This document shows, piece after piece, positions 29,886-64,000 of a stretch of 64,000 nucleotides of DNA. The stretch spans positions 424 through 64,423 of the forward strand of contig JBBIIC010000006.1 in assembly GCA_037446725.1 (NCBI GenBank), written 5' to 3'. Every line of letters begins with the position of its first letter. Within the stretch, counting starts at the first letter, position 1. This stretch comes from Actinomycetota bacterium (GTDB lineage: Bacteria > Actinomycetota > Coriobacteriia > Anaerosomatales > SLCP01). The position numbers were made by a program, and so were the translations under genes. Under the pieces are notes generated by a model. That model was not told the origin of the DNA. It worked only from the letters and a program-made list of their open reading frames with translations, and did not search any database.

Positions 29886-30884
29886 TCAGTCCTTCATCTT
29901 CACGTCGAGCGCGTCACGGAAGCCGTCGCCCAGCAGCACGAATGCGAGCACGGTGGTCAGGATGGCAAAGCCGGGCCAGATGGTGAGCCACGGCGCGACG
30001 AACATGAGCGACTTCGCGTCGGAGAGCATGAGGCCCCATGACGGCGTCGGCGGCTGAACGCCCATGCCGAGGAAGGACAGTGCCGCCTCGGTGATAATCG
30101 CTCCCCCGACACTCATCGTGCCGTACACGATGATAGGCGCGATGGCATTGGGCATGACGTGTCGGAACATGATGCGGAAGTCAGACGCACCCATGGCGCG
30201 CGCCGCGTCGATGTACTCATTCTCCTTCACGGAGAGGATCGAGCTCCGGAACACGCGCGCGATGCTCGGCCAGCCGAGGATGCCGATAGCGATGAACACG
30301 TTGCGGTAGCTCGGTCCGAGGACCGCGATGAGGGCGATGGCGAACAGTATGTAGGGGAAGGCGAAGAAGACGTCGGCCGTTCGCATGACGAAGGTGTCGA
30401 CCGCGCCTCCGCGGTATCCCGACAGGGCACCAAGCAGGAGTCCGATGACCAGCGAGATCGAGACCGCAAGCACGCCGACCGCAAGCGAGACCCGTGCACC
30501 GTAGATGACGCGAGAGAAGACATCGCGGCCGAGTTTATCGGTCCCGAAAGGGTGCTCCCACGACGGCGACTGAAGACTCGCCCCCGGCTCCGTGTTGACC
30601 GCAATCGGGTCGGCGAAGAAGAGTGGCACCCACAGGTCGGCGGTGAGGGTCATGGTCACGACGATCATGATCCACACGAGACCGGTGATGGCGAGCTTGT
30701 TCTTGCGAAGCCTGCGCCACGCGTCGCCCCACAGCGTGCGGCTAGCCGTGACCGCACTGTCGTAAACGTGCGCGTTACCGGGAAGTGTCGGCAGCGTCGT
30801 GCCCTCGGTCTTCACCTCGTGCCCGCACACATCGACCGGGCCGTTGACAGGGTGATCGCGAGGGTCATGCGGCCTGGGGCTCAT
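29886..30884 (-). CDS. ABC peptide transporter permease (OppC/DppC-type)
   Basis: BPD-transporter permease with the EAARAMGAS-type motif (IDAARAMGASDF). Start ATG 30884 overlaps the upstream stop (ATGA). Confidence 0.85.
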   Translation of the reverse strand: MSPRPHDPRDHPVNGPVDVCGHEVKTEGTTLPTLPGNAHVYDSAVTASRTLWGDAWRRLRKNKLAITGLVWIMIVVTMTLTADLWVPLFFADPIAVNTEPGASLQSPSWEHPFGTDKLGRDVFSRVIYGARVSLAVGVLAVSISLVIGLLLGALSGYRGGAVDTFVMRTADVFFAFPYILFAIALIAVLGPSYRNVFIAIGILGWPSIARVFRSSILSVKENEYIDAARAMGASDFRIMFRHVMPNAIAPIIVYGTMSVGGAIITEAALSFLGMGVQPPTPSWGLMLSDAKSLMFVAPWLTIWPGFAILTTVLAFVLLGDGFRDALDVKMKD

Positions 30885-31858
30885 TCGGCAGCACCCCCGT
30901 ACCTGATCCGCGGATCGAGCCACGCGTAGCTGAGGTCGACGATGAGGTTCGTGATCATTACGAGGAACACGATGATGATCGTGCCGCCCATGACGATCGG
31001 CCAGTCGCGCTGTCCGACCGCCAGGAAGATTTCACGGCCGACTCCCGGCCAGCTGAACACGGTCTCGGTGAGGATCGCCCCTCCCATCATCACACCGAAG
31101 TCGATTCCGATGAACGTCACGACGGGGATGAGCGCGTTCTTCATCTGGTGCCTGAAGATGACCGCCCGGCGTGTGAGGCCCTTGGCCTCGGCGGTCCGTA
31201 TATAGTCCTGGCTTCCGGCCTCGAGCATCTGGCTGCGCATGATGCGCGCAACGTAGGCGGTCGAGACGGAGGCTAGGGTGATGGCCGGAAGGATCAGGTG
31301 CGCCCAATCAGGGAAGTCGGCCGATGACATCTGAGACATCGGTAAGTAGAACGCTCCCCCGGTCCACTCTTTCATTTTGATGCCGAAGAGTATCTGGAAC
31401 AGCATTCCGAGCCAGAACACCGGCACTGAGACCAGGATCGAAGTGGAGAGAGTCACGAGCACATCGCTGAATGAGTACTGTTTGACGGCCGAGATGATGC
31501 CGGCACTGAGGCCGATCACCGCCTCGATGATGATTGCTGCTATCGCGAGCCTAATGGTGTTCGGAAACTTCTCCGCGAAGATATCGCGGACGGGACGCCC
31601 CCGCTGGTACGACTCACCGAGGTCGCCCTGAAGCAGGCTGGTGAGGTACATCCGGTACTGCACGAGAAGCGGCTGATCGAGCCCGTGCTTCTCGATAATC
31701 TGCTGGCGCAGCGTGTCGGAGATCGCGCGCTCGCCGGTGATCATCCGCACCGGATCGCCCGGGAGCACGCCCGGAGCCCGTAGGATGAAGAGGATAAGGG
31801 TCACGCCGATGAAGACAGGGATCATCTGAAGGACACGGCGGACTGTGTACTTGAGCAT
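30881..31858 (-). CDS. ABC peptide transporter permease (OppB/DppB-type)
   Basis: MLKYTVRRVLQMIPVFIGVTLILF is a typical N-terminus. It also has a RTAEAKGL motif. Confidence 0.85.
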   Translation of the reverse strand: MLKYTVRRVLQMIPVFIGVTLILFILRAPGVLPGDPVRMITGERAISDTLRQQIIEKHGLDQPLLVQYRMYLTSLLQGDLGESYQRGRPVRDIFAEKFPNTIRLAIAAIIIEAVIGLSAGIISAVKQYSFSDVLVTLSTSILVSVPVFWLGMLFQILFGIKMKEWTGGAFYLPMSQMSSADFPDWAHLILPAITLASVSTAYVARIMRSQMLEAGSQDYIRTAEAKGLTRRAVIFRHQMKNALIPVVTFIGIDFGVMMGGAILTETVFSWPGVGREIFLAVGQRDWPIVMGGTIIIVFLVMITNLIVDLSYAWLDPRIRYGGAAE

Positions 31859-57135: not shown

Positions 57136-58497
57136 TCAGGCCGTGAGCTCGCGAATCGCTGCTCGCAGGGCGGTCGGCAGGCGCTCGGCGAGCCGGTCCG
57201 GGCGGGCCATCTGCGCAGCGATCAGGCGGGTTGCGAACGGCTTCGCAGACTGCGTGATGTCGATCTCCGGATAGATCGCCCTCGCGACACCCTCCACCGT
57301 GACGAGCGCCTTGACGAGAAGGCCGTACCCGGCGGGAATGGGCACGCGGGCATCGGCCATGATGGCGAGGAACCCGGTCGCGAAGCCCTTGATGTCCGCC
57401 GGCTTGCCCGGCACGTTCAGTGTGCGCCCCATCAGCTCCCCCACGCGCTGGCGCACCTCGCGCTGCTTGTGGTCCGGCACGACGAGTCCCAGCTTCGCGG
57501 AGTAGCAGAGCGCACGGTCCGCGTCACCGTACACGGTGGCCGCAAGCACCTGCGCGATGTGCACCCGCTCGGCCGGCTCAGTGGTGCCGACGATGCCGAA
57601 GTCGAGGTAGCAGATGCGCGAATCAGGCGTCACGAAGAGGTTCGCCGGGTGCAGGTCGGCGTGGTAGCGGCCCAGGACGAGCACCTGGCGCATGAAGACC
57701 TCCGCGCCGTGAAGCGCGAGCCGAAACGCGTCGACCCCGGCCCGGGCGGCGTCGTCGATCTCGGTCAGTCTCCAACCCTCGACGAACTCCATCGTCAGCA
57801 CGCTGCGTGCGGAGTGCGTCCAGGCGATGCGGGGCGTCATGACGAGCGGGTCGTCTCTGAAGTCGTAGGCGAAGCGATCGGACACCCGGCCTTCGTTTCG
57901 TAGGTCGAGCTCGCTCGAGAGAGAGCCTGCGAACTCCTCGAGCAGCGCGGGTGCATCGATCCGCCTCGAGAGCCCGAGCCGGTCGAGTCGCGCGAGGAGC
58001 CGGCGCGCCTCAGCGAGATCGGCCTCGATGGTCTTGGCGGCACCAGGACGCACGACCTTGACCGCGACCGGTGTGCCCGCAGGCATAACCTCACCGATGA
58101 CCGGCCTCACGTCACGCGCCAGCGTGGCCCGGTGCACCTGAGCGATCGAGGCCGCCGCGACCGGCTCGCGGTCGAAATCAGCGTACAGCACGGACAGCGG
58201 ATGCCCGAGTTCGCGGGTGATCACCGCCTCGATCTGGGCCGTCGGCGAAGGCGGCACGCGCTCTTGAAGCTGCTCGAACTCGAAGACGTACTCGGGTGGC
58301 ACCAGGTCCGGACGCACGGACGCGACCTGGCCGAGCTTGACGAAGGCAGGACCGAGGTCTTCGAGTGCCATGCGGGTAGCAGCCGCGAACGCCGCGCGGC
58401 GGGCCGAGCGTGGTGCGAATCCGAATCGCGCCGCCGGCGCGCCTGCGGCCCAGCGCCGAGTGAACGTCCGGACGATGACGCGACCGCGCCTCGACAC
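57136..58497 (-). CDS. ABC1/UbiB-family atypical protein kinase (no C-terminal TM helices)
   Basis: LGPAFVKLGQVASVRPDL, ASIAQVHRA and HADLHPANLF motifs. Confidence 0.85.
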   Translation of the reverse strand: MSRRGRVIVRTFTRRWAAGAPAARFGFAPRSARRAAFAAATRMALEDLGPAFVKLGQVASVRPDLVPPEYVFEFEQLQERVPPSPTAQIEAVITRELGHPLSVLYADFDREPVAAASIAQVHRATLARDVRPVIGEVMPAGTPVAVKVVRPGAAKTIEADLAEARRLLARLDRLGLSRRIDAPALLEEFAGSLSSELDLRNEGRVSDRFAYDFRDDPLVMTPRIAWTHSARSVLTMEFVEGWRLTEIDDAARAGVDAFRLALHGAEVFMRQVLVLGRYHADLHPANLFVTPDSRICYLDFGIVGTTEPAERVHIAQVLAATVYGDADRALCYSAKLGLVVPDHKQREVRQRVGELMGRTLNVPGKPADIKGFATGFLAIMADARVPIPAGYGLLVKALVTVEGVARAIYPEIDITQSAKPFATRLIAAQMARPDRLAERLPTALRAAIRELTA

Positions 58498-58506
58498 GGA
58501 TGCCCC

Positions 58507-58878
58507 CTATCCGGTCTCGGAGCCGTCGTCTGCGGCGAGGGTTGCGTCGAGCGTCGCCTGCATCGACTCGAGGCGGCCTCTCAGCTCGCTGACCTCGAAG
58601 AGGAGGTCGTCGAGTTTGGACTCCAGATCGGCCTTCGAGCCGGGGGGCTCCATATCGCCCGCTGCGAGCGCGGCCTTAAGGCGCTCCTTCTCCTCGGCGA
58701 CCATGGCCGAGAGACCGTCGACGAAGGCTTCCGGTCCAGCCTGCATGGCTCCCGGCTGCTGGTCCTCCCCGCGTACTACAGCCGCCTTCCAGCCCTCGTC
58801 GGCGGTCTCGTGCACGAGTGCCCACGCTGCGAGGAAACGCATGAAGCTGTCCTCCGCCACCCTGTCCACCTCCGTCAT
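58507..58878 (-). CDS. Hypothetical acidic coiled-coil protein
   Basis: 123-aa ORF located 10 nt upstream of the ABC1 kinase start. I recognise no family. Confidence 0.45.
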   Translation of the reverse strand: MTEVDRVAEDSFMRFLAAWALVHETADEGWKAAVVRGEDQQPGAMQAGPEAFVDGLSAMVAEEKERLKAALAAGDMEPPGSKADLESKLDDLLFEVSELRGRLESMQATLDATLAADDGSETG

Positions 58879-58938
58879 CGCGCCTCGGGTTGCTGCGCGC
58901 CCACCGAACAGATTATGCCCCGTACGACGGCGCGCTGC

Positions 58939-61035
58939 TCACGGGCGCCGTGCGAGCAGTCGCATCCCGTTCAACGTGACGAGCAGCGAGATCCCGGTGT
59001 CCGCGAACACCGCCATCCAGAGCGTGGCGGTCCCGGTCGTCGCGAGTCCGAGTACGGCGAACTTGACGATGACGGAGAGTGCGACGTTCTGCCGGATGAC
59101 AGACACCGTCCGCCTGCCGAGCTCGAAGAAGCGCGGGAGCTGCATCAGGTCGTCGGACATGAGTGCGACGTCGGCGGTCTCGAGTGCCGTGTCGCTGCCC
59201 GCTGCGCCCATCGCGATGCCGAGGTCGGCAGCTGCGAGCGCGGGAGCGTCGTTGATCCCGTCGCCGACCATGGCAACCGCTCCGTAACGGGCCCTGAGCC
59301 GGTGGACCGCGTCGACCTTCTGTGCGGGAAGCAAGCGCGCCTCATGCTCGGGGACACCCGCGCGATCGGCGACGGCGGCCGCCGTCCGCTCGTTGTCCCC
59401 AGTGAGCATCACCAAATGCTCGATAGAGCTGCCGAGCAGCCGCGAGACAGCCTGCGGGGTGTCCCGGCGCACCTCGTCAGCCACCCCGATGACTCCTGTG
59501 GCGCGCCCGTCTTCGACAAGCACGAGCGCGCTGCGGCCCTCACTCTCAAGGCGATCGACGACCGGACGGGCCGCGTCTGTGCTCGCCCCCTCTGACGCGG
59601 CGAACGCCGCGCTGCCGATGGCCATGCGGACACCGCCTACTGTGGCCCTCACCCCGCCGCCCGGGACATCTTCGAACGCGGTCACGCGCTCCCGTGCGCG
59701 CTCGCCCCCGTCGGCGCGGACCACCGCGCGCGCGACCGGGTGGTTGCTGTGGGCCTCGAGTGCAGCCGCGGCGCCGAGCACACGAGCGGTGTCTCCGCCA
59801 TCGAGCGCGATCACATCGGTGACTTCTGGACGACCCCACGTCAGCGTACCGGTCTTGTCGAACGCCACAACGCGCACGCGCGCCGCCGTCTCCAGGTGCG
59901 CGCCACCCTTGACGAGCACTCCGTCGCGGGTCGCGCGCGTGATCGCCGAGACGATCGAGACCGGAGTCGATATGACGAGCGCGCACGGACACGACACCAC
60001 GAGAACGACGAGGGCACGGTAGAACCACTCGCTCCACGAGCCCCACTCGGCTCCGAGCAGCACTCCTGCCGCGGGCGGGAGGACTGCAAGTGCGACGGCG
60101 AGCACCACGACCGCCGGGGTGTAGGAGCGACTGAACCGGTCCACGATCTGTTGTGATGGTGCGCGCGTCGTCTGCGCCTCCTCGACCATGAAAATGATAC
60201 GCGCGAGCGTCGAGTCCTCGGCCACCGCCGTGACGCGGATCTCGAGACGACCGGTGGTGTTCATAGAGCCCGCGAACACGGGATCACCGATCGACTTGTC
60301 CGCCGGGACGGACTCTCCGGTGATCGGCGACTCGTCCACCGCCGACGCGCCGTCGACGATCCGCCCGTCAAGCGCGATCCGCTCGCCCGGCCGGACCACG
60401 ACGACATCGCCCACCCCGACGTCAGCGGCGAAGACCTCCGCCTCCACCTCGCCCTCGAGCACGCGGGCGACCGGCGGACTGAGATCCATGAGATCTCGAA
60501 TCGAGCGTCTCGTACGCTCCAGCGAGCGCGACTCGAGCAGCCCGCCGAGCGAGAACAGGAACAAGACTATCGCGCCCTCGGCCCACTCCCCGATGAGAGC
60601 GGCACCGATGACCGCGATGGTCATGAGGACGTTCATGTCGAGCGAGCGGGCCCTGACCGACACGAGCGCCCGGCGGAACACGAGCCAGCCACCACTGACA
60701 ATGGCTGAGGCGTACGCCGCGACGGGGACTCCGCCCGCAATCGCCTCCCCGGAGCGGTCGAGCAGCCATCCGACGGTCACGAACACACCCGCCGCCGCGG
60801 TGGTTGCGGCGTGTCCGTTCGCCGCCCACCACCCCGGAACGACGGAGACACCGGGTCTCTTTCCCGGGGTCGCCGGAGCGCCGAGTGGCTCGGCGTGGTG
60901 ACCGCTCGCCCGCAGCACCGCGAGCGCTCGCTTGCGCGGATCGGTCGCGGGATCGTACTCAATCACCATGACGCCGCTCGCGAAGTTCACGTCGGCGCGC
61001 ACGACGCCCGGTATCCGCTCGACGGACGTGGCCAC
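58939..61035 (-). CDS. P1B-type heavy-metal ATPase, Zn/Cd/Pb subtype (core downstream of an in-frame TGA)
   Basis: CPC in TM6 (VSCPCALVISTP), DKTGTLT and GDGINDAPAL. A TM7 Lys (VIVKFAV) and TM8 ADTG are typical of ZntA/CadA-type pumps. The reading frame continues upstream through the TGA at 61054-61056. Confidence 0.85.
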   Translation of the reverse strand: MATSVERIPGVVRADVNFASGVMVIEYDPATDPRKRALAVLRASGHHAEPLGAPATPGKRPGVSVVPGWWAANGHAATTAAAGVFVTVGWLLDRSGEAIAGGVPVAAYASAIVSGGWLVFRRALVSVRARSLDMNVLMTIAVIGAALIGEWAEGAIVLFLFSLGGLLESRSLERTRRSIRDLMDLSPPVARVLEGEVEAEVFAADVGVGDVVVVRPGERIALDGRIVDGASAVDESPITGESVPADKSIGDPVFAGSMNTTGRLEIRVTAVAEDSTLARIIFMVEEAQTTRAPSQQIVDRFSRSYTPAVVVLAVALAVLPPAAGVLLGAEWGSWSEWFYRALVVLVVSCPCALVISTPVSIVSAITRATRDGVLVKGGAHLETAARVRVVAFDKTGTLTWGRPEVTDVIALDGGDTARVLGAAAALEAHSNHPVARAVVRADGGERARERVTAFEDVPGGGVRATVGGVRMAIGSAAFAASEGASTDAARPVVDRLESEGRSALVLVEDGRATGVIGVADEVRRDTPQAVSRLLGSSIEHLVMLTGDNERTAAAVADRAGVPEHEARLLPAQKVDAVHRLRARYGAVAMVGDGINDAPALAAADLGIAMGAAGSDTALETADVALMSDDLMQLPRFFELGRRTVSVIRQNVALSVIVKFAVLGLATTGTATLWMAVFADTGISLLVTLNGMRLLARRP

Positions 61036-61056
61036 GGTCCGCGCGCAATCCGGTCA

Positions 61057-61347
61057 ATCGAGACCGGTGAGGCGGTATGACGCGTGCGCGACCGCCGCCC
61101 CGATCTCGAGCCCGAACTCCCGTGCGGCCAACTCCACGTCCGCGGCCGCGAGCACCCCGGGGTCGAAGGTGACCGCCATCGTCCACGTCCGGGGGTCGAC
61201 GATCACGGAGTGCACGCCCGCCACTCCCCCGATCGCGGTCCTCAGCCGCTCGATGCATTCGGCGCAGCGTTCAGCGTCGGGCATGGCGACCGGAAGCCGG
61301 ATCTCACCGACGCGCTCGGCGCTGCTGGTTGCCGGCCCGACGTTCAC
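61057..61347 (-). CDS. N-terminal metal-binding region of the same P1B ATPase (upstream of the in-frame TGA)
   Basis: A first HMA-like domain with CAEC, then YRLTGLD-[TGA]-PDCARTVATSVERIPGV, which is an interrupted GxDCxxC HMA motif. The ATG at 61347 overlaps the arsR stop (ATGA). Confidence 0.7.
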
Positions 61348-61718
61348 CGGCGCTCCCCGGCATGTTCGAGGCCCTGGGCGAGCAGGCTCTCGACATGGGA
61401 GTCGGCCAGACGGTAGACCACGCGCTTCCCGGCGCGCTCGAAGGTTACGAGCCGCCTGTCACGCAACACCCGGAGCTGGTGGCTCACGGCCGACTGGCTG
61501 GCAGCGGTCACCGCGGCGAGATCGCAGACGCAAAGCTCCTCCCGCGAGAGGGCAAGAAGGATCCTCAGCCTGGTCGGCTCAGAGAGAGCGGCGAAGATCT
61601 CCGCGAGCATGAGCAGGTCCCGCTCGTCCGGGAGTGCGTCAGCGGCGCGCGTGACGGCGCGCGCGTCGACGATCCGCGCCGCGCACAGGTCCGAGGCTTC
61701 ATATGCACGCCTGCTCAT
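61344..61718 (-). CDS. ArsR/SmtB-family metalloregulator (CadC-like)
   Basis: LSEPTRLRILLALSREELCVCDLAAVTAASQSAVSHQLRVLRDRRLV is a winged helix-turn-helix with a CVC metal site. The 251-aa track ORF is over-extended. Confidence 0.85.
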   Translation of the reverse strand: MSRRAYEASDLCAARIVDARAVTRAADALPDERDLLMLAEIFAALSEPTRLRILLALSREELCVCDLAAVTAASQSAVSHQLRVLRDRRLVTFERAGKRVVYRLADSHVESLLAQGLEHAGERR

Positions 61719-61734
61719 ACGTTCATATGTACCG
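61699..61734. promoter_or_regulatory. Imperfect 12-2-12-like inverted repeat with two TTCATATG boxes (candidate ArsR/SmtB operator)
   Basis: The plus strand reads CTTCATATGCACGCCTGCTCATACGTTCATATGTAC and spans the arsR start codon. It is an AT-rich island. Confidence 0.45.
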
Positions 61735-61823
61735 TCCTCCGGCCACGCCGTCAATCCTCCCTGCCCGCGCGGGAATAGTCTGTTGTGAGATCGACCCGCG
61801 GTTCTCCGGTACGGGAGGCAGAC

Positions 61824-63977
61824 ATGGGCCATCCAAACGTTGTGACCCTCTCGCAAGCGGCTGACCTCGACGCGTCCATCGTGGGCGGGAAGGCGGCGCA
61901 CCTCGCCCGGCTGGCGGCACACGGACTGCCGGTACCGGATGCGCGGGTCGTCACGACGGTCGCATTCGACGCCTTCCTGTCGGACTCGGGCGCCGCCGCG
62001 TTGGTGGACGATCTCGCGTCCCTGCCGCGACACAGGGTGACGGTCGAGGAGGCGGCTGCCCGCGTCCGCGCGGCGATCATCGGGTATCCGCTCGCTCAAA
62101 CGCTCGCCGGTGAGCTCGCTACCGCATTCGTAGAGCTGACGGAGGCGGGCGGCACCGTCGTTGTCAGGAGCTCGGCGACGGTCGAGGACAGTGCGTCATC
62201 GAGCTTCGCCGGGATGCTCTCGTCGATCCCTGCGGTGGCGAGCGCCGAAGAGATGTACTCGGCCGTGAAGCGATGCTGGGCCTCGGCGTTCGAAGCGAGA
62301 GCGGTCCTCTACGCGCTCGAGCGGGGCGTGGAACCCGCGGACGTCCGGGTCGCGGTCGTGCTGCAGCGCCAGGTTCTCTCGGAGCGCTCCGGTCTCGCCT
62401 TCGGCCGCGATCCGGCACGACATGAAGCCGACATCGTCATCGTCGAGGCGATACAGGGTGCCGGTGAGGACATCGTCTCAGGCGAGGTGACGCCCGAACG
62501 CTACGAGTACTTCCCCGCCGACGGTCGTGTAACGGTGGTAGGCAGACCGAGCAAGTCCCTCTCGGTCGAGCGCAAGCTCACCGAACGCGAGGTGGCGCTC
62601 CTGGCGACCTGGGCGCGCGAGGCAGAACGCCTCTTCGGCTCTCCGCAGGACATCGAGTGGGCATCGGTCGGTGACCGGTTCTTCTTGCTCCAGTCCAGGC
62701 CGCTCGTGTTCTCCTCAACCGATTCGATGGTCTTCCCCGAGATCGCCGAGCACACAGTGCTCCTGCGGGGAGTGGGGGCGAGCCCTGCCGTCGGCACGGG
62801 CGAAGTCGTCAGGCTCATCGGCGAACAGGTGCAGATCCTGCCGCCCGGGGCGGTGGCCATCGTCAGCCGGCTGACCAACGATCTCGCGGTCCACCTGCGT
62901 GGGGCCTCGGCCGTCGTCGCGGACGAGGGCGGAGCGACGAGCCATGGTGCCAACATACTGAGAGAGTTCGGAGTCGCGTGCGTTCTCGGCACCGGAACGG
63001 CGACTTCGACGCTGACGGACGGGCAGCGCGTCACGGTCGACGGATATCGTGGCGTGATCTACCTCGGTGACCTGTCGTTGCGCCCCGCCGACGTCGAGGA
63101 GACTCCGCGCACGCGCACCCGGGTCTTCGTTTCGGTGCTCGTCCCGGACCAGGCACGTGTCGTCGCCACGCACGCCGATGGGGTGAGCTCCCTGAGAAAC
63201 GACTACCTCCTCCTGCAGTCCGGGGTGCATCCGGCGAAGATGGTCCGCTCCGGTCGGAGCGAGCAGCTCCTGGGCACCATCGCGTCCGGCATCGTCCAAA
63301 CCGCCGAACTCTTCGCAGGGCGACCGGTCTGGTACAAGACACTCGATGCGCCCACCGATGAGTTCAGGCGTCTGGTCGGGGGGGACGAGGAGCCGACCGA
63401 GCGCAACCCGCTTCTGGGATGGCGCGGCCTCGGTCGCGAACTGGAGGAACCCGAGCTCTTCATGCTCGAGCTCCGGGCTGTGATGCGCGCACTGGAGTCC
63501 GGTGCCGAGAACGTTTCGCTCAAGCTGCCGTTCGTGCGCTTCCCCGAGGAATACGAGCGCGCGAAGCGCTTCATCGAGCGTGCGGGGTTGCGCCCGCACG
63601 AAGACGTCGGAATCGGCGTGTCGGTCGAAACGCCGGGGATCGCTGCACGCCTTCAGGTCCTGTGCGATCTCGGGGTGGACTTCATCAGCGTCGGCGTGAG
63701 CGACCTCGTGATGTGCATCCTCGCGCTGGACCGTGAGAGCGAACGCGTCGCCTCGCTCTTCCAGCCCGCACACCCCGCGGTGCTCGATGTCCTCGGCCAT
63801 ATCGCAGAGACCTCCCGGACCAACGACGTATTCCTGTGCGCGTGCGGAGAGAGCGCGCACGACGAAGCGCTCCTGCCCGAACTCGTTGCGCTCCGGTACG
63901 ACGCGGTCGGGGTCTCGCTGCCCTACTTCGCGCCCGTCAGACGGCGCATCGCCGGAATCGAGCGCACCTCGATCTAG
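61824..63977 (+). CDS. PEP-utilising enzyme (phosphoenolpyruvate synthase / pyruvate phosphate dikinase family)
   Basis: N-terminal PPDK_N ATP-grasp (VGGKAAHLARL), phosphohistidine swivel domain (GGATSHGANILREFGVACVLG) and a C-terminal PEP/pyruvate TIM barrel. ATG 61824 with a GGGAGG RBS. Confidence 0.8.
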   Translation: MGHPNVVTLSQAADLDASIVGGKAAHLARLAAHGLPVPDARVVTTVAFDAFLSDSGAAALVDDLASLPRHRVTVEEAAARVRAAIIGYPLAQTLAGELATAFVELTEAGGTVVVRSSATVEDSASSSFAGMLSSIPAVASAEEMYSAVKRCWASAFEARAVLYALERGVEPADVRVAVVLQRQVLSERSGLAFGRDPARHEADIVIVEAIQGAGEDIVSGEVTPERYEYFPADGRVTVVGRPSKSLSVERKLTEREVALLATWAREAERLFGSPQDIEWASVGDRFFLLQSRPLVFSSTDSMVFPEIAEHTVLLRGVGASPAVGTGEVVRLIGEQVQILPPGAVAIVSRLTNDLAVHLRGASAVVADEGGATSHGANILREFGVACVLGTGTATSTLTDGQRVTVDGYRGVIYLGDLSLRPADVEETPRTRTRVFVSVLVPDQARVVATHADGVSSLRNDYLLLQSGVHPAKMVRSGRSEQLLGTIASGIVQTAELFAGRPVWYKTLDAPTDEFRRLVGGDEEPTERNPLLGWRGLGRELEEPELFMLELRAVMRALESGAENVSLKLPFVRFPEEYERAKRFIERAGLRPHEDVGIGVSVETPGIAARLQVLCDLGVDFISVGVSDLVMCILALDRESERVASLFQPAHPAVLDVLGHIAETSRTNDVFLCACGESAHDEALLPELVALRYDAVGVSLPYFAPVRRRIAGIERTSI

Positions 63978-64000
63978 GCTCTGCGCTACTCCGCCTCCAT

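Follow-up and report, generated by a model that had tools for sequence, protein, structure and literature searches.

What happens at a TGA that interrupts the reading frame of an otherwise intact metal-pump gene? The question is raised by a gene on the minus strand of a 64,000-nucleotide stretch of Actinomycetota DNA (assembly GCA_037446725.1, contig JBBIIC010000006.1, positions 424 to 64,423; hereafter the window). The gene would encode a P1B-type ATPase, a heavy-metal efflux pump, and its in-frame TGA falls within an HMA (metal-binding) domain. Our reading, to which we give a probability of about 0.88 from sequence comparison, is that the UGA at codon 98 is read as selenocysteine (Sec) in the HMA domain of a Zn/Cd/Pb efflux pump. 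The actual insertion of selenium, the binding of SelB and the metal specificity are what we infer.

An in-frame TGA at a metal-ligand codon

On the minus strand, a frame of 802 sense codons opens with the GTG at 61347 and closes with the TGA at 58941-58939. Only one stop interrupts it, the TGA of codon 98 (61056-61054), where the sequence reads YRLTGLD-TGA-PDCARTVATSVERIPGVVRADVNFASG, and the frame agrees with that described in an earlier note on this DNA. The GTG at 61347 is preceded, 5 nucleotides (nt) upstream, by the Shine-Dalgarno sequence GGGGAG. The list of open reading frames (ORFs) cuts the frame into a 97-residue ORF (61054..61347) and a 698-residue ORF (58939..61035) that starts at a GTG, and the public gene calls on the source contig, under the metagenome-assembled genome GCA_964392675.1, make the identical split. 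No GGAG-like Shine-Dalgarno sequence lies upstream of this second GTG, at 61035, a lack that the earlier note had already remarked on. The genetic code in the window is the standard one and TGA is otherwise an ordinary stop, because TGA ends the pump gene itself, the adjacent ArsR gene and 16 of the 35 long ORFs with coding composition; a global reassignment of TGA is rejected on the same count. The public annotation almost certainly splits one pump gene wrongly in two.

The position of the TGA within the protein is set by alignment. With Cys put in place of the TGA for the Pfam query, the HMA model PF00403 scores 53.9 bits (cut-off 24.8), with its best stretch at residues 92-149 and the metal loop where the domain begins. 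Among solved structures the best relative is ZntA (PDB code 4UMV; E = 1e-120 over residues 88-801), and the phmmer alignment sets GLD[TGA]PDCARTV against GMDCAACARKV of ZntA. The TGA therefore stands exactly at the first metal-ligand Cys, as the earlier note had it. The Asp ahead of the first ligand (D-U-x-x-C) is invariant, and the Zn site in ZntA's N-terminal domain has it too.

Among orthologues from independent assemblies, 37 distinct sequences have a TGA at this codon, with 58-75% protein identity where measured, and seven relatives have TGC or TGT there. These two sets, referred to as TGA forms (n = 37) and Cys forms (n = 7), are the basis of all codon and hairpin counts given below. A search of metagenomes, with a pattern drawn from the sequence immediately downstream of the motif, gave 44 loci, of which 35 have TGA and the others TGC or TGT. 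In a scan of GTDB genomes with the full-length protein, most of the matches listed were distant relatives; four loci among them were informative (L002-L005), two being TGA forms (L004 and L005) and two Cys forms. A further locus, L132, is 58% identical and is a TGA form. The earlier note had left three readings standing, namely a selenoprotein, a pseudogene or truncated pump, and a sequencing error; the TGA in 37 orthologues supports the first. It had also named, as the outcome that would speak against Sec, orthologues uniformly carrying TGC or TGT with no conserved hairpin, and the opposite was found (37 TGA forms against 7 Cys forms, with the hairpin kept).

The distribution of the TGA is obscured in protein databases. 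The roughly 20 closest protein relatives (65-75% identity, 87% query coverage; those that are named are Coriobacteriia/Anaerosomatales metagenome-assembled genomes) are all about 695 residues long and have no HMA domain, a pattern that the DNA of the fetched loci explains. In the syntenic loci L082 and L083 (73-75% identical), a 97-residue ORF, the TGA and the pump ORF are joined in frame through GLD-TGA-PDCARTV. Farther relatives, at about 55% identity, are about 860 residues long and have HMA domains. Among the 120 nearest protein clusters, 60 begin within the HMA domain just past the metal motif and 56 have G[LMF][DNS]CxxC. The annotated starts of the former are inconsistent (VAKSVEQ..., MKQIPG..., VVRADV..., MVLEYDP...). 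Such inconsistent starts within the HMA domain point to systematic mis-annotation, in which a short HMA ORF is followed by a truncated ATPase. In a neighbour-joining tree of the 119 nearest alignable relatives, a rough one with states inferred from truncated gene calls and no support values, presumed Sec and Cys forms are interleaved, with at least 11 changes. This pattern suggests repeated exchange between Sec and Cys, as in other selenoprotein families.

Selection on the codons that flank the TGA bears directly on whether the frame is translated through it. Upstream, over codons 14-97, dN/dS (the ratio of nonsynonymous to synonymous substitution rates) is about 0.2-0.35 between orthologues, with the N-terminal part of the protein included, where a second HMA-like domain lies. 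Downstream, over codons 99-104, which separate the TGA from the GTG restart, nine of the ten pairs compared have a dN of 0 and a dS between 0.2 and 1.2, and the tenth pair is identical there. Across the 37 TGA forms P99 (CCC/CCT/CCG), D100 (GAC/GAT), C101 (TGC/TGT) and A102 show almost only synonymous changes, the exception being one Thr at position 102. These codon comparisons indicate purifying selection upstream of the TGA, downstream of it and within the six codons that separate it from the annotated restart. Were translation to stop there and begin again at the GTG, codons 99-104 would go untranslated; that course cannot explain a pattern of synonymous-only change, which argues that the frame is translated across the TGA.

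A candidate SECIS hairpin downstream of the TGA

Bacterial insertion of Sec would call for a selenocysteine insertion sequence (SECIS) element, and the nucleotides downstream of the TGA were compared between the two sets. A near-invariant stretch, GCG-CGG-ACC-GUG...UCC-GU, is found only in the TGA forms, synonymous sites included. The codon of R103 is CGG in 34 of 37 TGA forms and is CGC, CGT or AGG in the Cys forms; that of T104 is ACC in 35 of 37, against ACG in five of six Cys forms; and V105 is written GTG in 36 of 37 TGA forms and never so in the Cys forms. S108 is TCC in 33 of 35 TGA forms and in four of six Cys forms. The four-fold degenerate codons nearby (G95, G114, V115 and A118) vary freely in the TGA forms. 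On the other side of the TGA, the codon of D97 is GAT in all 37 TGA forms and in four of the seven Cys forms (GAT/GAC, 4/3). Codon 96 is CTC in 33 of 37 TGA forms (codons 96-97 are at 61057-61062 of the minus strand in the window), and the base that follows UGA is C in all 37. The frozen codons 96-97 and the invariant C suggest that codon context is constrained before and after the Sec codon, in addition to the hairpin.

The constrained bases can pair. Numbered from the U of UGA, nt 15-20 (61042-61037) pair with nt 30-35 (61027-61022) to give the upper stem of a proposed SECIS core, and the apical loop CGUGGCCAC, at 61036-61028, begins CGUG. Within it the unpaired G22-U23 (61035-61034) is invariant in 37 of 37 TGA forms and is part of the GTG taken as the restart codon. 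The earlier note had drawn this hairpin as GGAC-C-GU[GGCC]AC-GUCC at 61040-61024. That structure is present, with its C-G and G-U extensions, but what the orthologues back is a 6-bp stem with a 9-nt loop: the two inner pairs of the drawing are specific to the window and to L111, the only other sequence with Thr107 (ACG). Below the core a lower helix may form between nt 9-12 and nt 39-42. It reads CUGC/GCAG in most orthologues, its pairs 9-42, 10-41 and 11-40 form in 32 of 37, and the window has a U-G pair where others have C-G or U-A. The lower helix is a possible extension, with weaker evidence than the core hairpin.

The bacterial SECIS (bSECIS) consensus, as given in the Fig. 2 legend of PMC13188914, has 3-9 nt in the apical loop, 4-16 bp in the upper stem and a spacing of 16-37 nt from the UGA to the loop. 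One of the first two loop bases is a G, with G or U as the next base; the minimum free energy is -7.5 kcal/mol or lower, and the structure is maintained in evolution (covariation). The 9-nt loop and 6-bp stem of the window hairpin fall within these limits, its loop CGUGGCCAC has the G followed by G/U, and its spacing from UGA to the loop is 17 nt, with the loop starting at nt 21. The free energy in the window is -7.6 kcal/mol for the upper hairpin alone, marginally past the threshold, and -13.8 kcal/mol with the lower helix. The model fits 34 of 37 TGA forms, always with the loop from nt 21 or 22, and none of the seven Cys forms. In the controls, 3.8% of synonymous recodings of the same peptides and 2.2% of the other codon positions in the gene fitted with a loop starting at one of these two nucleotides.

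Alternative stems at the same place are seen in four divergent types (five loci). These are CGCAC/GUGCG in L089/L090 and in L110, CGCGC/GCGCG in L004, and GCGCGG/CCGCGC with the loop GGUC in L121. The last of these (Ga0209014_10090600, nt 907-970; PDCARSVGRAV) forms an 8-bp stem with the 4-nt loop at nt 21-24. The present hairpin can be compared with the SECIS element of Escherichia coli fdhF. Both lie in the coding sequence directly 3' of the UGA and both present an unpaired G-U in the apical loop, at nt 23-24 in fdhF (loop GGUC at nt 22-25 in the MG1655 record) and at nt 22-23 here, an agreement within one nucleotide. The loop GGUC of L121 has the same sequence as that of fdhF (nt 21-24 against 22-25). 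The differences are a loop of 9 nt in most members here against 4 nt in fdhF, no bulged U evident here, and sequences that are otherwise unrelated. We propose, on the strength of these comparisons, that the hairpin is a bacterial SECIS element.

Under this proposal, UGA 98 would be decoded as Sec, and the metal site of the regulatory HMA domain would be D-U-x-x-C rather than D-C-x-x-C. Decoding would be directed by the hairpin within the coding sequence, whose upper stem starts 11 nt past the UGA and whose loop would offer its unpaired G-U at nt 22-23; SelB carrying Sec-tRNA(Sec) would bind this hairpin.

Counter-evidence and rival explanations

Several observations weigh against Sec. The gene is rich in GC, and the generic bSECIS model is satisfied by chance at 18% of codon positions. 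Shuffled sequences fold as stably as the window does at 61056-61010 (z = +1.05), and RNAalifold on the 37 sequences gives another, weak fold and not the hairpin as the consensus. Covariation is weak, with one double-change pair and a score of 0.063 against 0.053 for shuffles (15 of 500 reach it); the formal signal is weak because the stem is nearly invariant. Given the z score and the chance rate, the structural case rests on the comparison of orthologues and not on the single sequence, and the 37 TGA sequences of that comparison share ancestry, so that the counts are not of independent events. In the genome, a search for selA, selB, selD and tRNA-Sec (tblastn with E. coli SelA, SelB and SelD; ARAGORN; Rfam) found none in the 64-kb window or the fetched loci, a part of the genome so small that the result is uninformative. 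A scan of the window for in-frame TGAs flanked by coding signal gave no convincing second selenoprotein gene. We found no report in the open literature of Sec use in Anaerosomatales, OPB41 or Coriobacteriia, and we know of no member of the P1B-ATPase selenoprotein family that has been verified experimentally.

The alternative that survives best, and that we still consider very unlikely, is a conserved split gene without Sec. Here a 97-residue protein would be followed by re-initiation at the GUG 18 nt downstream (61035), the pump would lack a functional HMA domain, and the conserved nucleotides would be a re-initiation signal in place of a SECIS element. The retention of the GUG (nt 22-24) in 36 of 37 TGA forms would suit such a signal, as would the choice of this GUG or a nearby start by gene callers. 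P1B ATPases can also transport metal without their N-terminal metal-binding domains, a point made in the earlier note. The synonymous-only change in codons 99-104 (dN = 0), which would here be untranslated, speaks against it. So does the HMA domain itself: its fold would be broken in both products, one ending before the metal loop and the other starting after it, yet the domain is conserved on both sides. Moreover, no Shine-Dalgarno-like sequence precedes the GUG, the stop takes the very place of a Cys codon, TGC or TGT in relatives, and the conserved bases form a hairpin of the SECIS model, for which alternative stems exist in the four divergent types.

Fainter still is the prospect of read-through independent of Sec, in which a near-cognate tRNA, that for Trp or for Cys, would decode a leaky UGA-C, whether or not the hairpin helped. 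Of all stop contexts in bacteria, UGA-C leaks most, and that C is invariant here; the search of the window and fetched loci also gave no Sec machinery. Trp at a metal-ligand position, however, would inactivate the site, and Cys is supplied far more efficiently by TGC, the relatives indeed using TGC or TGT. The geometry of the hairpin fits a SelB-dependent SECIS element, down to the GGUC loop that L121 shares with fdhF, and the selenoproteins listed for Sec-decoding bacteria include this ATPase family. 

A recent nonsense mutation (a pseudogene) or an assembly or sequencing error, both considered in the earlier note, would take one change from TGC or TGT to TGA in what is a metagenome-assembled genome, but is effectively ruled out by the same TGA in 37 distinct sequences from independent samples and assemblers (58-75% identity where measured) and by purifying selection on both sides of it. 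Selenocysteine is thus the reading with which we describe the pump below.

The pump, its neighbours and its relatives

The coordinates of the gene, its elements and its upstream neighbour are collected in Table 1. Beyond the HMA domain, the protein matches TIGR01525 (heavy-metal P-type ATPase; 587.7 bits, cut-off 346.25, residues 238-797), TIGR01512 (Cd family; 505 bits, cut-off 313.5) and the Pfam models E1-E2_ATPase and Hydrolase. CPC in the sixth transmembrane helix (TM6), N(x)7K in TM7 and DxG in TM8 we take to mark P1B-2 (Zn/Cd/Pb) pumps. All three motifs are present, and the pump is probably a P1B-2-type (ZntA/CadA-like) Zn/Cd/Pb efflux ATPase, a metal specificity suggested by these motifs. 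Its scores are below the cut-offs of the ZntA equivalog models NF033775 (494.5 against 1240 bits) and NF008262 (563.2 against 1005 bits), and the models therefore class it as no ZntA equivalog, though it would be ZntA/CadA-like in its working.

Table 1. Positions in the window of the Sec-pump gene, its sequence elements and the adjacent regulator.
Feature	Coordinates	Strand	Basis or remark
Whole pump gene, P1B-2-type heavy-metal ATPase, proposed selenoprotein	58939..61347	-	802 codons + TGA stop
In-frame TGA, proposed Sec codon	61054..61056	-	First Cys of GxDCxxC, here GLD-U-PDC
Proposed SECIS core	61022..61042	-	6-bp upper stem GCGGAC/GUCCGU + 9-nt apical loop CGUGGCCAC
Possible extended SECIS, 4-bp lower helix	61015..61048	-	61048-61045 UUGC with 61018-61015 GCGG; nt 9-12 with 39-42
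HMA domain with the proposed Sec codon	60901..61074	-	Residues 92-149; PF00403 and alignment to ZntA N-terminal domain
Extra N-terminal HMA-like domain	61102..61302	-	About residues 16-82; own CxxC (CAEC, 61255-61266), upstream of TGA
TM6 motif SCPCALVISTP (CPC metal site)	59962..59994	-	Residues 452-462
DKTGTLT phosphorylation motif	59839..59859	-	Residues 497-503
TM7 N(x)7K, NVALSVIVK	59053-59088	-	From residue 754; motif search
TM8 DxG, FADTG	58993-59007	-	Residues 781-785; motif search
ArsR/SmtB-family metalloregulator	61344..61754	-	136 residues; ELCVCDL; NF033788 98 bits, cut-off 55

The Pfam HMA model gives two stretches in the protein, and TIGR00003 covers residues 28-82, within the extra HMA-like domain. 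The CxxC of this domain is placed differently (LPVAMPDAERCAECIERL), and LPVxMPxxxxCxxC is kept in Sec and Cys relatives alike. A shorter variant of the protein, seen in L084/L085 and L089/L090, is without the extra domain and retains the TGA, in L084/L085 with GLD-TGA-PDCARTV kept. A different arrangement is found in L132 (9719-12307) and in clusters P0069, P0071, P0073, P0081 and P0086-P0088, where a second HMA domain, this one with Cys, comes after the Sec-HMA domain (CADC about 68 residues past the annotated start). One protein thus holds both a Sec and a Cys version of the domain.

Directly upstream lies the gene of the ArsR/SmtB-family regulator, whose stop overlaps the GTG start of the pump (GTGA). 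The overlap suggests that this metal sensor is translationally coupled to the pump and co-transcribed with it, and the ArsR-pump order is also found in L082, L083 and L084. As annotated, the regulator has a long N-terminal extension, about 50 residues ahead of its helix-turn-helix core, and its ELCVCDL is the thiolate motif. A wider gene order is conserved between the window (57136-64000), L001, L082, L083 and L084, relatives whose pumps share only 65-75% identity. The order leads from a PPDK-like PEP (phosphoenolpyruvate)-utilising enzyme on the opposite strand through ArsR, the Sec-ATPase, a protein of 113-123 residues and a UbiB/ABC1 kinase to acetyl-CoA synthetase, GlnD, P-II and Amt. The small protein next to the Sec-ATPase has no Pfam match. 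Elsewhere in the window, the scan for in-frame TGAs also matched a TGA at position 30055 of the plus strand, with high third-position GC on both sides. It was rejected as most likely an artefact, because its first-position GC of 0.43-0.48 fits the antisense frame of a minus-strand gene at 29886-30923.

Comparison with known systems indicates that the gene is an added member of the P1B-ATPase selenoprotein family already predicted in other bacteria and not a new kind of system. With that family it shares a heavy-metal P1B ATPase above the TIGR01525 cut-off, the predicted Sec in UxxC, Cys homologues, TGA homologues elsewhere and a candidate SECIS element directly downstream of the UGA. What differs is the lineage, the nearest named relatives here being Coriobacteriia/Anaerosomatales metagenome-assembled genomes. 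The numbers differ as well: the 2016 count of the family gave 32 genes in 25 organisms, and here at least 60 of the nearest 120 protein clusters appear to be TGA forms.

ZntA (E. coli/Shigella sonnei, 4UMV) and the CadA-type P1B-2 pumps have in common with the present pump the GxD-C/U-xxC with its Asp, and the CPC, N(x)7K and DxG motifs; like the pump gene, zntA is served by a metal-sensing regulator, here within the operon. The present pump differs from ZntA in having Sec, as we read it, for the first Cys and an extra HMA-like domain (CAEC) in front. The regulator is of ArsR/SmtB type here, whereas ZntR, the regulator of ZntA, is of MerR type. A second point of comparison is NF041115 (UxxU_metal_bind, "metal-binding (seleno)protein"), which likewise describes an HMA-fold domain with Sec in the metal loop. 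Its members are stand-alone proteins of about 74 residues with UxxU, while the domain here forms part of a pump and has UxxC. The match to NF041115 covers residues 87-153 and scores 42 bits, below the cut-off of 95, and the pump is not a member; the model means, therefore, that a stand-alone HMA-type selenoprotein family exists.

The UGA and its hairpin might also do more than specify a residue, by acting as a selenium-dependent switch between two forms of the pump, which we regard as unlikely. With selenium, a full-length pump would be made, and its Sec/Cys HMA site would bind soft metals, Cd, Pb or Hg for example, more tightly or exchange them faster. Without selenium, termination and re-initiation at the invariant GUG in the SECIS loop would yield an unregulated, active truncated pump. 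The GUG would then double as SelB contact and back-up start codon.

The consequences of the proposed Sec codon reach beyond this locus. A functional pump gene is split in the public record, as are those of about half of the 120 nearest clusters, and the metal-binding domain vanishes from databases with the split. The TGA form is the common form in a Coriobacteriia/Anaerosomatales-like clade, which implies that Sec decoding occurs in the clade. The locus would offer a clean SECIS example for a non-redox, metal-ligand Sec, with synonymous sites frozen in the TGA forms and not in the Cys forms. A Sec ligand in a Zn/Cd/Pb-sensing HMA domain would be a tractable case for the role of selenium in metal binding as opposed to redox catalysis. 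If the switch were real, selenium status would be linked to metal efflux across a clade of subsurface Coriobacteriia.

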